A DNA stretch of 5,552 nt from a virus (Duplodnaviria; Heunggongvirae; Uroviricota; Caudoviricetes), in the IMG/VR virus record IMGVR_UViG_2740892426_000001; one strand, 5' to 3'. A model generated the notes under the pieces. It had not been told where the DNA came from. It ran no database searches and worked only from the letters and a program-made list of their open reading frames with translations. The position numbers and the translations under genes were made by a program. The first letter of the stretch is position 1; each line of letters opens with the position of its first letter. Of the stretch, positions 1 through 5,552 are shown in pieces.

Positions 1-1
1 G

Positions 2-1180
2 TTCTGGTTCTCGGAAAAGCGGATTACCGATATCAGGCAGGTTGAAACCACAGCCCGCTATCTTGGTACGGCGCTGTACTGGATAGCCGCCAGTATCAAT
101 ATCAAACCGGGCCATGATTATTACTTTTATATCCGCAGTGTGAACACCGTTGGCAAATCGGCATTCGTGGAGGGCGTCGGTCGGGCGAGCGATGATGCGG
201 AAGGTTACCTGGATTTTTTCAAAGGCAAGATAACCGAATCCCATCTCGGTAAAGAGCTGCTGGAAAAAGTTGATTTGACGGAGGATAACGCCAGCAGACT
301 GGATGAGTTTTCGAAAGAGTGGAAGGACGCTAACGATAAATGGAATGCCATGTGGGGCGTCAAAATTGAGCAGACCAAAGACGGCAAACATTATGTCGCG
401 GGTATTGGCCTCAGCATGGAGGACACGGAGGAAGGCAAGCTGAGCCAGTTTCTGGTTGCCGCTAACCGTATCGCGTTTATTGACCCGGCAAACGGGAATG
501 AAACGCCGATGTTTGTGGCGCAGGGCAACCAGATATTCATGAACGACGTGTTCCTGAAGCGCCTGACAGCCCCCACCATTACCAGCGGTGGCAGTCCTCC
601 GGTATTTTCCCTGACATCAGACGGAAAGCTGACCGCTAAAAATGCGGATATCAGTGGCAGAGTGAATGCGAACGCCGGGACGCTCAACAATGTCACGGTA
701 AATGAAAACTGTACGATTAAGGGCATGCTGGAGGCGACTCAGGTCAGAGGTGACTTCGTTAAAGCTGTATCCAAATCATTCCCGAAACAGGCTGGTACGT
801 GGGGTAATACGGAAACACCAAACGGGACGGTTACAGTCACCATCAGCGATGATCATAACTTTGACCGTCAAATCATTATTCCGCCCATTATCTTTAACGG
901 AATAGCGTATAGCGATCCGGGAAGTGGTAATAACCCGGGAGGTACAAGATACACGGGTTATGGTTTTGAAGTTCGCAAAAACGGTGTATTAATCGCATCC
1001 AGAGAAACTAAAGGGGCCATTCCCGGTAGTTACAGTGCAGTTATTGATATGCCTAGTGGTGGTGGTAGCGTCACTCTGGAGTTTAAGATTTTCCAGAAAG
1101 GCAATCAGGGGGCAGGGAATATCACCGACTGTACGGTGATTGTGACCAAAAAAGCGGCTTCCGGTATCAGTATTCGTTGA
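2..1180 (+). CDS. J: Tail tip / host-specificity protein J, C-terminal ~392 codons; 5' end lies upstream of the window
   Basis: Frame 2 is open from position 2 to TGA at 1178..1180, so the ATG at 140 in the ORF track is internal, not the true start. The translation (…[65 protein letters not shown]… ending …[18 protein letters not shown]) matches what I recall of the C-terminal part of lambda gpJ. Position immediately upstream of lom is the canonical lambda order. Not verified by search. Confidence 0.85.
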
Positions 1181-1250: not shown

Positions 1251-1850
1251 ATGCGTAAACTTTATGCAGCCATTTTGTCCGCAGCTATTTGTCTGGCCGT
1301 ATCCGGTGCGTCTGCATGGGCATCTGAACATCAGTCCACGCTGAGCGCGGGGTATCTTCATGCCTCGACGAACGTTCCCGGCAGCGATGATCTGAACGGG
1401 ATTAACGTGAAATACCGTTATGAGTTTACGGACACACTGGGGCTGGTGACGTCATTCAGCTATGCAGGAGACAAGAATCGCCAGCTTACCCGTTACAGCG
1501 ATATCCGCTGGCATGAAGATTCCGTGCGTAACCGCTGGTTCAGCGTGATGGCGGGGCCGTCTGTGCGCGTGAATGAATGGTTCAGCGCGTATGCGATGGC
1601 GGGTGTGTCTTACAGCCGTGTGTCGACTTTCTCCGGGGATTATCTCCGCGTAACTGACAACAAGGGGAAAACGCACGACGTGCTGACCGGAAGTGATGAC
1701 GGTCGCCACAGCAACACGTCTCTGGCGTGGGGAGCTGGCGTGCAGTTTAACCCGACCGAATCCGTGGCCATTGATATTGCTTATGAAGGCTCCGGCAGTG
1801 GCGACTGGCGCACTGACGGTTTCATCGTGGGTGTCGGTTATAAATTCTGA
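1251..1850 (+). CDS. lom: Lom outer-membrane protein (Ail/Lom/OmpX family 8-stranded beta-barrel), 199 aa
   Basis: N-terminus [24 protein letters not shown] is a typical Sec signal peptide with an AxA cleavage motif. The mature part has alternating aromatic/hydrophobic residues and ends in the C-terminal Phe (…[10 protein letters not shown]) that is typical of outer-membrane beta-barrels. The sequence matches my recollection of lambda Lom. The gene is bracketed by intrinsic terminators and sits between J and stf as in lambda. Confidence 0.9.
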
Positions 1851-1914: not shown

Positions 1915-4875
1915 ATGGCAGTAAAGATTTCAGGTGTACTGAAAGACGGCACAGGAAAACCGGTACAGAACTGCACAATCCAGCTGAAAGCAAAACGTAA
2001 CAGTACCACGGTGGTGGTGAACACGCTGGCCTCAGAAAATCCGGATGAAGCCGGGCGTTACAGCATGGACGTTGAGTACGGTCAGTACAGCGTTATTCTG
2101 TTGGTGGAAGGCTTCCCGCCGTCACATGCCGGGACCATCACCGTGTATGAAGATTCCCGACCCGGTACGCTGAATGATTTTCTCGGTGCCATGACGGAGG
2201 ATGATGCCCGTCCTGAGGCACTGCGCCGTTTTGAACTGATGGTGGAAGAGGTGGCGCGTAACGCGTCCGCGGTGGCACAGAACACGGCAGCCGCGAAGAA
2301 GTCAGCCGGCGATGCCAGCACATCAGCCCGTGAGGCGGCAACCCATGCGACTGATGCTGCAGGCTCAGCACGCGCAGCCAGCACGTCAGCCGGACAGGCC
2401 GCGTCGTCGGCTCAGTCAGCGTCTTCCAGCGCAGGAACGGCATCAACAAAGGCCACTGAAGCGGAAAAAAGTGCTGCCGCTGCAGAGTCCTCAAAAAGCG
2501 CGGCGGCCACCAGTGCCGCTGCGGCGAAAACGTCAGAAACGAATGCGGCAGCGTCACAACAATCAGCAGCCACTTCTGCATCCACCGCGACCACAAAGGC
2601 GTCAGAAGCTGCCACCTCAGCCCGGGATGCGTCGGCTTCAAAAGAAGCGGCAAAATCATCAGAAACGAACGCATCATCAAGCGCCAGTAGTGCCGCTTCC
2701 TCGGCAACGGCGGCAGGAAATTCCGCGAAGGCGGCAAAAACGTCCGAGACGAACGCTAAGTCTTCTGAGACGGCAGCGGGACAGAGCGCCTCAGCTGCGG
2801 CAGGCTCAAAAACAGCGGCTGCGTCGTCTGCCAGTGCCGCGTCAACAAGTGCCGGGCAGGCCTCAGCCAGTGCCACCGCCGCCGGAAAATCGGCAGAAAG
2901 CGCCGCATCATCCGCTTCAACAGCCACAACGAAGGCTGGCGAAGCCACTGAACAGGCCAGCGCAGCAGCGAGTTCTGCTTCCGCAGCGAAGACATCCGAA
3001 ACGAACGCGAAAGCGTCGGAAACCAGCGCAGAATCCTCAAAAACGGCTGCCGCATCGTCAGCCAGTTCGGCGGCGTCATCGGCATCATCGGCGTCTGCTT
3101 CAAAAGATGAGGCGACCAGACAGGCGTCAGCAGCGAAGAGCAGCGCCACGACGGCATCCACGAAGGCGACAGAGGCAGCTGGCAGTGCGACGGCGGCAGC
3201 TCAGAGCAAAAGTACGGCGGAATCCGCGGCAACGCGCGCCGAGACAGCAGCTAAACGGGCAGAGGATATTGCATCCGCCGTGGCGCTTGAGGATGCGAGC
3301 ACGACGAAAAAGGGGATAGTACAGCTCAGCAGTGCGACTAACAGCACTTCCGAGTCACTGGCGGCAACGCCAAAAGCAGTTAAGGCCGCGTATGACCTGG
3401 CTAACGGGAAATACACCGCACAGGATGCAACGACAGCACAGAAAGGGATCGTTCAGCTCAGCAGCGCGACCAACAGCACATCTGAAATGCTGGCGGCAAC
3501 GCCAAAGTCGGTAAAGGCAGCCTATGACCTTGCTAACGGGAAATATACCGCTCAGGACGCTACGACAGCACAAAAAGGAATTGTCCAGCTCAGTAGTGCA
3601 ACCAACAGCGCATCTGAAACGCTTGCCGCGACACCGAAAGCAGTGAAAGCAGCTAATGATAATGCGAATGGTCGGGTACCTTCTGCCCGTAAGGTGAATG
3701 GTAAGGCGCTTTCAGCGGATATAACACTGACGCCGAAAGATATTGGTACGCTTAACTCAACAACAATGTCATTCAGCGGTGGTGCTGGTTGGTTCAAATT
3801 AGCAACGGTAACCATGCCACAGGCGAGTTCTGTTGTTTCAATTACGTTGATTGGTGGCGCGGGATTTAACGTGGGGTCACCTCAACAGGCAGGTATATCT
3901 GAACTTGTTTTGCGTGCAGGTAATGGTAATCCGAAGGGGATTACTGGTGCTTTATGGCAGCGCACATCGACAGGGTTTACAAATTTTGCCTGGGTCAATA
4001 CATCTGGTGATACTTACGATATTTACGTTGCAATCGGAAATTATGCGACTGGTGTAAATATTCAATGGGATTATACCAGTAATGCCAGCGTGACGATTCA
4101 TACGTCACCAGCATATTCTGCTAATAAGCCGGAAGGGTTAACGGACGGTACAGTTTATTCACTCTATACGCCATCAGAGCAGTTTTATCCGCCTGGCGCA
4201 CCAATCCCGTGGCCATCAGATACCGTTCCGTCTGGCTATGCCCTGATGCAGGGGCAGACTTTTGACAAATCTGCATACCCGAAACTTGCAGCCGCTTATC
4301 CGTCAGGCGTGATCCCTGATATGCGTGGCTGGACGATTAAGGGCAAACCCGCCAGTGGTCGTGCCGTATTGTCTCAGGAACAGGACGGCATTAAATCGCA
4401 CACCCACAGCGCCAGCGCATCCAGTACGGATTTGGGGACGAAAACCACATCGTCGTTTGATTACGGCACTAAATCCACGAATAACACCGGGGCTCATACG
4501 CACAGTCTGAGCGGCTCTACAAGCTCGGCCGGAGCACACTCGCACGTTGATGGTCGCAGGTTTAATACAAGCACTTTTAAAGACACCTATCAGTATGGTT
4601 CTACAGCTGTCGGAAGTAACTCATACCAGGTACAAGGGGCGGTTGGTCTGGGCATTGGCACGATGGCGAATACGAACTCTGCTGGCGCGCATACCCACTC
4701 ACTGTCCGGCACTGCTGCAAGCGCAGGTGCACACGCACATACTGTCGGTATTGGTGCTCATACGCACTCCGTTGCGATTGGCTCACATGGACACACCATC
4801 ACCGTTAACGCTGCTGGTAACGCGGAAAACACCGTCAAAAACATCGCATTTAACTATATTGTGAGGCTTGCATAA
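1915..4875 (+). CDS. stf: Side tail fibre protein Stf, full-length and uninterrupted (986 aa from ATG 1915)
   Basis: Continuous ORF ending at TAA 4873..4875. The ORF track starts at GTG 1909, but ATG 1915 preceded by GGGGTGA gives the N-terminus [26 protein letters not shown]…, which I recognise as the lambda Stf N-terminus. The C-terminus (…[70 protein letters not shown]… …[31 protein letters not shown]) matches the lambda Stf / T4 gp37-type fibre tip. A tfa gene follows immediately. Confidence 0.9.
2290..3290 (+). repeat. In-frame Ala/Ser/Thr-rich low-complexity region of stf with imperfect internal repeats
   Basis: About 330 codons dominated by GCN/TCN/ACN codons. The motif K-(T/S)-S-E-T-N-A recurs at about nt 2527, 2653, 2737 and 2989, and variants of '[12 protein letters not shown]' and 'TATTKA(S/G)EA' recur. 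Stop-free shadow ORFs on both strands (2138..2737-, 2312..3319+, 2412..3161-, 2756..3232-) are the expected by-product. Confidence 0.8.
3298..3660 (+). repeat. Three tandem in-frame repeats of about 129-132 bp (about 44 aa) inside stf
   Basis: Protein units: [43 protein letters not shown] / [44 protein letters not shown] / [32 protein letters not shown]…. Nucleotide units start near 3301, 3430 and 3562 and carry many synonymous differences, so the repeats are diverged at DNA level but conserved at protein level. My recollection of lambda Stf has a single '[14 protein letters not shown]' unit. Confidence 0.85.
4399..4794 (+). other. Array of seven His-x-His motifs in the stf C-terminal tip domain (putative metal-coordinating needle region)
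   Basis: In-frame HxH codon triplets at 4399..4407 (HTH), 4495..4503 (HTH), 4537..4545 (HSH), 4690..4698 (HTH), 4732..4740 (HAH), 4759..4767 (HTH) and 4786..4794 (HGH), mostly in the context GAHxHS/T. The T4 gp37 receptor-binding tip is known to coordinate iron ions through HxH motifs contributed by three chains. Confidence 0.6.
4861..4866 (+). promoter_or_regulatory. Shine-Dalgarno sequence for tfa, lying inside the 3' end of stf
   Basis: GTGAGG lies 8 nt upstream of ATG 4875. The stf stop TAA (4873..4875) and tfa start ATG (4875..4877) overlap as TAATG, indicating translational coupling. Confidence 0.6.
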
Positions 4876-5471
4876 TGGCATTCAGAATGAGTGAACAAGC
4901 ACGGACCATAAAAATTTATAATCTGCTGGCCGGAACTAATGAATTTATTGGTGAAGGTGATGCATATATTCCGCCTCATACAGGTCTGCCAGCAAACAGT
5001 ACCGATATTGCACCACCAGATATTCCTGCTGGCTTTGTGGCTGTTTTCAACAGTGATGAGGCATCGTGGCATCTCGTTGAAGACCATCGGGGTAAAACGG
5101 TTTATGACGTAGCGTCAGGGGACGAGTTATTTATTTCTGAACTCGGTCCGTTACCGGAAAATGTTACCTGGTTATCGCCGGAAGGGGAGTTTCAGAAGTG
5201 GAACGGCACAGCCTGGGTGAAAGATGCAGAAGCAGAAAAACTGTTCCGGATCCGAGAGGCGGAAGAAATAAAAAACAGCCTGATGCAGGTAGCCAGTGAG
5301 CATATTGCGCCACTTCAGGATGCTGTAGATCTGGAAATCGCAACGGAGGAAGAAACCTCATTGCTGGAAGCCTGGAAAAAGTATCGGGTGTTGCTGAACC
5401 GTGTTGATACATCAACTGCACCTGATATACCTCATTGCTGGAAGCCTGGAAAAAGTATCGGGTGTTGCTGA
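4875..5471 (+). CDS. tfa: Tail fibre assembly protein Tfa with a frameshifted C-terminus; 198 aa as encoded, last 13 aa non-native because of a 74-bp tandem duplication
   Basis: The translation [79 protein letters not shown]… matches my recollection of lambda Tfa (194 aa). The ORF runs into the second copy of a duplicated 74-bp segment in the +2 frame, giving …[20 protein letters not shown]-stop. Removing one copy restores …[16 protein letters not shown]-stop at TAA 5531..5533, a 194-aa product. Confidence 0.85.
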
Positions 5472-5502
5472 ACCGTGTTGATACATCAACTGCACCTGAT
5501 AT
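5355..5502 (+). repeat. Perfect 74-bp direct tandem duplication (copy 1 5355..5428, copy 2 5429..5502) at the 3' end of tfa
   Basis: ACCTCATTGCTGGAAGCCTGGAAAAAGTATCGGGTGTTGCTGAACCGTGTTGATACATCAACTGCACCTGATAT occurs twice head-to-tail with no mismatches. The flanking bases differ (A5354 vs T5428 on the left; A5429 vs T5503 on the right), so the unit is exactly 74 bp, which is not a multiple of 3. Confidence 0.95.
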
Positions 5503-5552
5503 TGAGTGGCCTACGAACCCTGTCAGGGAGTAATCATTGGGATTATGCCGCA

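Follow-up and report, generated by a model that had tools for sequence, protein, structure and literature searches.

The window analysed here, a whole stretch of 5,552 nucleotides of phage DNA, ends in a tail fibre assembly gene (tfa) in which a short segment stands twice in immediate succession. The locus thereby raises the question of whether this repeat is a new biological feature, a mutation of an already known kind or an artefact of the sequence record, and of what it would mean for the gene that carries it.

The lambdoid prophage that carries tfa

The window takes in the right end of a lambdoid prophage late operon, with the 3' part of J followed by lom, stf and tfa on the + strand, in the order known from lambda. 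Gene J (tail tip and host specificity) is cut by the window start, and its 3' part at 1..1180 aligns to the gpJ coding sequence of the E. coli genome NZ_AP017610 (L001 767-4180), which ends at window position 1180; J Pfam families are recorded for the homologous genes. The lom gene at 1251..1850 is identified by its open reading frame, the RefSeq annotation and PF06316. The side tail fibre gene, stf, occupies 1915..4875 (L001 4915-7875) and is intact, as had been claimed for it, encoding a protein of 986 aa that is recorded in identical form in 156 blocks of a public collection. Its mechanically called open reading frame starts at GTG 1909 (988 aa), whereas RefSeq and other gene calls place the start at ATG 1915 (986 aa), a small uncertainty about the start codon.

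Within stf, a 132-bp unit is repeated 2.6 times at 80% identity (3308-3653; TRF score 426) and encodes 44-residue repeats. In-frame repeats of this sort are typical of tail fibres, which sets it apart from the 74-bp duplication in tfa. Residues ~125-460 of Stf (window ~2290-3300) form a low-complexity stretch rich in Ala, Ser and Thr, with a loose …KTSETNA…/…SSASSAAS… pattern, and this stretch together with the 44-residue repeats may explain why Stf has 986 aa here and 774 aa in lambda (PMC7291167).

The nearest complete genome, NZ_AP017610, differs from the window by 4 SNPs over 5478 bases. All four are confined to a 27-base stretch close to the stf 5' end (window 2026-2052), a cluster that looks like a short recombination or gene-conversion tract, and the window version of 2026-2052 occurs exactly in other assemblies. 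In NZ_AP017610, the prophage is ~44 kb long and lies at a tRNA-Arg gene, with an intD-type integrase alongside. Its genes for regulation, lysis, head and tail form a full set; beyond it come a methyltransferase gene, a tfa remnant and ompT, the arrangement of a DLP12-type site. The prophage lineage is widespread in E. coli and complete-looking. The NZ_AP017610 prophage carries cargo of the lysogenic-conversion type, with iss, for an increased serum survival lipoprotein, next to the lysis genes (L019 20843-21136) and lom next to stf.

Two further observations concern the region around the end of tfa. A 45-codon open reading frame with a GTG start inside the tfa 3' end (L001 8432-8569; window 5506-5552 and on past the window end) shares part of its sequence with the convergent methyltransferase gene. 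Its RefSeq name differs between genomes, 'nucleocapsid protein' in one and 'hypothetical protein' in a second, and it is probably a spurious gene call. Some ~900 bp downstream, between the methyltransferase gene and ompT, lies the tfa remnant, which lacks the N-terminus (L006 8418-8549; L001 9332-9544). E. coli genomes carry a median of 2-3 similar tfa copies.

Structure of the duplication and the reading frame of tfa

As written, tfa occupies 4875..5471 on the + strand. Its ATG at 4875 overlaps the stf stop and its DNA is 94% identical to lambda tfa (orf-194). The identification of the gene as tfa, made initially without database searches, is borne out by this position directly downstream of stf and by a match to the Pfam family Caudo_TAP (PF02413) that scores 137.4 bits against a cut-off of 22.1. 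In the 198-aa form, the match spans residues 72-186 and profile positions 1-125 of 131, while the repaired protein scores 151.6 bits and reaches positions 1-130, positions 126-130 being matched only by the repaired form. The tfa found here is, in these terms, a disrupted member of the family and not a non-member.

The disruption has a simple structure. The segment 5355..5428 recurs exactly at 5429..5502 (period 74, 2.0 copies, 100% matches, 0 indels, score 296 in TRF), and both a separate repeat search and a direct string comparison found the two copies identical, so that all three approaches agree with the perfect tandem duplication described in the initial annotation. Chance cannot account for 74 matches in a row at a single offset (0.25^74). 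The short segment is present in exactly two perfect head-to-tail copies, and the boundaries of the unit are unambiguous, the repeat extending 0 bases to the left and 0 bases to the right. Copy 1 (5355..5428, + strand) lies in the native tfa frame, and copy 2 (5429..5502, + strand), the inserted extra one, stands 1 base out of register relative to it (74 = 3 x 24 + 2). The new junction between 5428 and 5429 reads ...CACCTGATAT on its left and ACCTCATTGC... on its right, and the duplication ends 50 bases before the 3' end of the window.

Little else marks the unit. Inside it, only a small palindrome, GTTGATACATCAAC (5403-5416), stands out, and microhomology at the unit ends amounts to 0 bp at both boundaries, where the arms of microhomology-mediated tandem duplications (MTDs) measure 3-4 bp or more. 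A repeat search of the window detected no in-register flanking repeats around the 74-bp unit; the nearest imperfect likeness, ACCTCAT (5355) and ACCTGAT (5420), is 9 bases out of register. Promoter-like or terminator-like sites were likewise absent from 5200-5552, and a regulatory by-product of the duplication was rejected on this ground.

Because 74 is not a multiple of 3, the frame of tfa shifts after Ile185, a residue that is itself kept as its codon changes from ATT to ATA across the junction. The product consists of 185 native residues followed by a frameshifted tail of 13 (5430..5471, + strand; codons 5430-5468, TGA 5469-5471) and has 198 aa instead of 194; here the translation of the open reading frame agrees with the earlier statement that the last 9 codons are shifted into 13 unrelated ones. 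The native codons EWPTNPVRE and their TAA remain downstream at 5504..5533 (+ strand; codons 5504-5530, TAA 5531-5533), orphaned out of the tfa frame and carrying the WPxxP motif. They had been placed at 5503..5533, which is right in that the native tail is still encoded there but one base too early at its start, since base 5503 still belongs to the Ile codon, as its third letter.

Uniqueness and origin of the junction

With one copy removed, the window (5478 bases) is 100% identical to four independent assemblies, comprising two NCBI genomes and two ENA metagenome scaffolds (L006, L008, L010 and L012). The gene after the exact window Stf is a 194-aa tfa in 10 of the 10 places listed, and the repaired 194-aa protein, which is identical to a RefSeq 'tail fiber assembly protein', occurs on at least 1000 contigs. 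The duplicated form, by contrast with this common parent, is private to this sequence. A 60-base probe centred on the junction gave 0 matches in 5426 complete E. coli genomes, 0 in 50,697 phage records and 0 in 72,556 plasmids, and the exact junction pattern was absent from the GTDB species representatives (one genome per species, 185,579 species), from IMG/VR viral contigs and from JGI metagenome contigs. As positive controls, the native 60-mer under identical settings found 7379 places in 3966 E. coli genomes, and the native right-hand junction was found in at least 119 IMG/VR contigs. The 198-aa product was absent among about 15 billion proteins, and the source sequence is therefore not contained verbatim in the NCBI, ENA, JGI and Logan assemblies. 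Contigs that encode P0024, a close Tfa, showed a different gene setting and were uninformative on the ends of the window. The search for relatives carrying the duplication, which the initial annotation had recommended, thus returned none from any of these collections. There is zero divergence between the copies or from the parent allele, and the proposal that the event is either very recent or artefactual is upheld by the perfect copies, the identity of the remaining sequence to four assemblies and the unique junction.

This distribution bears directly on the idea of a reversible genetic switch, in which duplication and collapse would turn the assembly of side tail fibres off and on in a population of prophages, as a form of bet-hedging on adsorption rate. 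We consider this hardly credible. A switch would be expected to leave both states in the population, yet the duplicated state was found in 0 of 7379 tfa-like places (3966 genomes) and in none of the other collections; both repeat states recur among relatives at phase-variable loci, and the junction occurred 0 times in six DNA collections. The unit also has no microhomology arms to make its formation recurrent, is present in only two copies and is not a short contingency-type repeat. The idea draws on the tendency of perfect tandem duplications to revert far more often than they form (PMC8639346; preprint 10.64898/2026.02.28.708716), on the fact that collapse would restore tfa exactly and on the reported detriment of fast side-tail-fibre adsorption in a biofilm-like setting (PMC2762979). 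If such a switch did operate, it would produce mixed adsorption phenotypes without permanent gene loss.

Two explanations carry most of the weight, namely a mutation and an error in the sequence record. We regard it as an even call whether the duplication is a real private mutation in the sequenced clone, the junction being known from the sequence record. Under this explanation, a single and evolutionarily instantaneous 74-bp head-to-tail duplication would have taken place inside the tfa 3' end, presumably by illegitimate template switching or unequal exchange without microhomology. The initial annotation had offered replication slippage or unequal recombination; slippage between direct repeats was rejected, there being no microhomology and no in-register flanking repeat, while unequal exchange was kept as an option. 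With 0 bp of microhomology, a classical microhomology-mediated duplication is excluded as well.

Tandem duplications in this size range are a frequent and well-characterised type of mutation. The frequency of natural events of this type can be judged from a survey of public data, in which ~76,000 variable tandem-duplication loci were reported from 1.5 million genomes (preprint 10.64898/2026.02.28.708716). According to the same preprint, duplications without microhomology account for 25-30% of the fixed ones and 13% of those arising de novo, where the random expectation is 75% by its authors' calculation; our own two-sided check gave a random expectation of 56%. The zero microhomology at this locus therefore shifts the odds ~two- to three-fold towards arbitrary breakpoints, such as those of an untrimmed overlap or another artefact.

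An artefact of assembly, sequencing or post-assembly editing, which would mean that the real prophage has a normal 194-aa tfa, is given by us somewhat less than an even chance. It might have come about through the end-to-end joining of two pieces overlapping by 74 bases with the overlap left untrimmed, for example at contigs meeting at a repeat boundary, at the ends of a circular or rotated phage contig or in a gap-filler extension; a chimeric library molecule or a change after assembly would be other routes. The perfect identity of the copies, in a window otherwise without divergence from four independent assemblies, is consistent with this, as are the missing microhomology, which is expected of arbitrary breakpoints and differs from most natural tandem duplications, and the lack of a second occurrence in any DNA collection or among ~15 billion proteins. 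The location points the same way, 50 bases from the window end and in a prophage gene present in several copies, a setting in which draft assemblies are prone to breaks and misjoins.

Several features argue against an artefact. Neither boundary of the unit lies at a divergence point of paralogous tfa genes, the kind of point at which assembly graphs branch: past 5428, ev099 and mEp332 keep their similarity for another 9-14 bases, and the downstream tfa remnant differs inside the unit. To our knowledge, 74 is not a default k of common assemblers. In pure de Bruijn assemblers, moreover, every k-mer of a contig, those across the junction included, must occur in the reads, which also counts against an artefact. 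Finally, natural fixed tandem duplications without microhomology are documented, at the 25-30% given above (preprint 10.64898/2026.02.28.708716).

A mosaic-breakpoint or assembly-graph origin was also considered and was rejected as specific support for an artefact. Several phage alignments ended at query position 554 (window 5428), but only because copy 2 starts there. The downstream remnant is 87% identical to the tfa 3' region, and its longest exact block ends at 5355, the first base of the unit, which we judged to be a coincidence, as the unit itself differs from the remnant at many positions. Given these many mismatches within the unit, the remnant cannot be its source or its partner in an assembly graph.

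Loss of the WPxxP motif and relation to known systems

Whichever way the junction arose, the reading frame as written lacks a conserved end. The residues W187, P188 and P191 of the native protein are present in 74/85, 78/85 and 73/85 aligned representatives of the Tfa family, respectively, and are at least 90% conserved in a separate alignment of 66 sequences, which includes members down to 33% identity to the 194-aa native-type Tfa (P0002). Positions 192-194 are poorly conserved in the alignment of 85 representatives. In the alignment with phage Mu Tfa, the WPxxP motif falls at the C-terminal end of that sequence, and the 198-aa open reading frame is without this conserved C-terminal motif of the family. 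Since the frameshift removes WPxxP, which is among the family's most conserved features, the allele is probably null or weak, a view for which sequence conservation is the basis.

The initial annotation had likewise suggested that the altered tail could impair fibre assembly, giving as its reason that the C-terminal part of Tfa engages the fibre tip. The suggestion can be retained, with the deletion of WPxxP as the better argument, while the reason given for it reverses the roles of the two domains: papers citing the phage Mu work (PMC9608196, PMC7291167) assign fibre-tip binding to the variable N-terminal domain, and for the conserved C-terminal helical domain they put forward a role as a bundle driving trimerisation and assembly. 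Tfa is further described as remaining on the mature fibre (PMC7291167).

Structure prediction adds little to this. In the AlphaFold2 model of the native-type Tfa (mean pLDDT 95.1), a beta-rich N-terminal part is followed by long helices at 118-152 and 158-176, and residues 181-190 are predicted as an ordered tail (pLDDT 95). For the 198-aa form, the mean pLDDT is 94.0 and the predicted body is unchanged, with residues 181-190 at 86 and the new tail at 65. The comparison of native and mutant forms barely discriminates between them, as is expected of an alignment-driven predictor, and we treat it as weak. [quoted passage not shown]

A functional 198-aa protein, in which the terminal 9 residues are dispensable or the Cys-rich tail is tolerated and the duplication is effectively neutral, appears unlikely. 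It would accord with the preservation of every one of the 185 residues ahead of the new tail, the beta-domain and the two long helices (118-152, 158-176) among them, with the same fold being predicted by AlphaFold2 at nearly the same confidence (mean pLDDT 94.0 against 95.1) and with the poor conservation of positions 192-194. However, the lost W187, P188 and P191 are among the most conserved positions of the family, at the end of the Pfam profile, and the new tail is present in no natural family member.

The last point derives from 280 homologues retrieved, none of which has the new tail, so that the frameshift interpretation did not founder on a relative that naturally ends in these 13 residues; the only shared word is SIGCC, in P0256. 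This protein (171 aa), a 'representative' of the family, comes from a tfa in which several frameshifts have garbled the product, and it ends in …EARRSIGCC. It shares with the window tail both the alternative frame and the TGA at which that frame stops, by an independent event. Frameshifted tfa calls thus exist in public data, and some of them probably come from error-prone assemblies. A programmed translational frameshift was rejected, considering that the shifted-frame extension is not conserved among the 280 homologues.

Returning to the reading as a real mutation, the exchange of the last 9 Tfa residues, WPxxP included, for 13 unrelated ones would yield a null or weakened Tfa and, in turn, virions on which correctly assembled side tail fibres are scarce or absent. 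Such a phage would be expected to remain viable, infection through the J tail tip being independent of the side fibres, and collapse of the repeat would give back the exact wild-type tfa. Reversion of tandem duplications is more than ten times as frequent as their formation (preprint 10.64898/2026.02.28.708716; see also PMC8639346). In lambda, side tail fibres speed adsorption via OmpC and are not essential, and the laboratory strain is without them owing to a frameshift in stf (PMC7291167, PMC10695390). Knock-down of stf or tfa leaves plaque formation unaffected, and both genes are non-essential in lambda (PMC10695390, PMC7291167). Given that lambda can do without its side tail fibres, a lesion in the tfa of this prophage would be mild.

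Taken together, the only novelty is the allele itself, the gene, its family and this class of mutation having all been described before. The duplication is not a new biological feature; it is either a private mutation of an ordinary kind or a sequence artefact, in a gene that can be dispensed with. It matters little: if real, it would be a further private mutation that inactivates or weakens an accessory gene in a common E. coli prophage, and tens of thousands of its class have already been catalogued from public genomes. In practice, it is of use for annotation and quality control, where this tfa should be flagged as frameshifted or possibly artefactual and not as a novel Tfa variant. A minor use would be as an allele without only the WPxxP end of the C-terminal domain, for probing the role of the motif, although the same allele is trivially engineered.

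Among known systems, the gene itself resembles tfa (orf-194) of lambda, both in lying directly downstream of stf with overlapping stop and start codons and in the 94% identity of the DNA, and the C-terminal region of its product aligns to residues 112-174 of the phage Mu Tfa (protein U, PDB 5YVQ). It differs from the Caudo_TAP family in the missing terminal WPxxP, in place of which stand 13 unrelated residues, an ending seen in no other member.

The lesion can be compared with the stf frameshift by which lambda PaPa differs from Ur-lambda. In both cases, a frameshift lesion affects the lom-stf-tfa accessory module of a lambdoid phage, and the side tail fibres are expected to be lost with viability kept (PMC7291167, PMC10695390). 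In lambda PaPa, however, the lesion lies in the fibre gene and is a single-base change, whereas in the window it lies in the chaperone gene and is a 74-bp duplication, for which precise collapse is possible, known from one sequence.

As a mutation, the duplication resembles MTDs in the size of the segment (the range is ~10-500 bp), in its two perfect head-to-tail copies, in the frameshift and in the prospect of exact reversion (PMC8639346; preprint 10.64898/2026.02.28.708716). It differs from them in the absence of the defining microhomology arms, with 0 bp at both boundaries, and the window duplication is accordingly either of the minority class without microhomology or not biological.

A natural parallel is found in E. 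coli UTME-14 and UTME-10, in which IS1B splits the same tfa allele after ~29 codons (L002 2001-3362, UTME-14). The allele there has 100% identical flanks and is inactivated in natural genomes, but the agent is an insertion sequence at ~codon 29, and the event is recorded in two annotated complete genomes, as against the single unverified occurrence of the duplication. These IS1 insertions indicate that tfa decays naturally in this prophage lineage.
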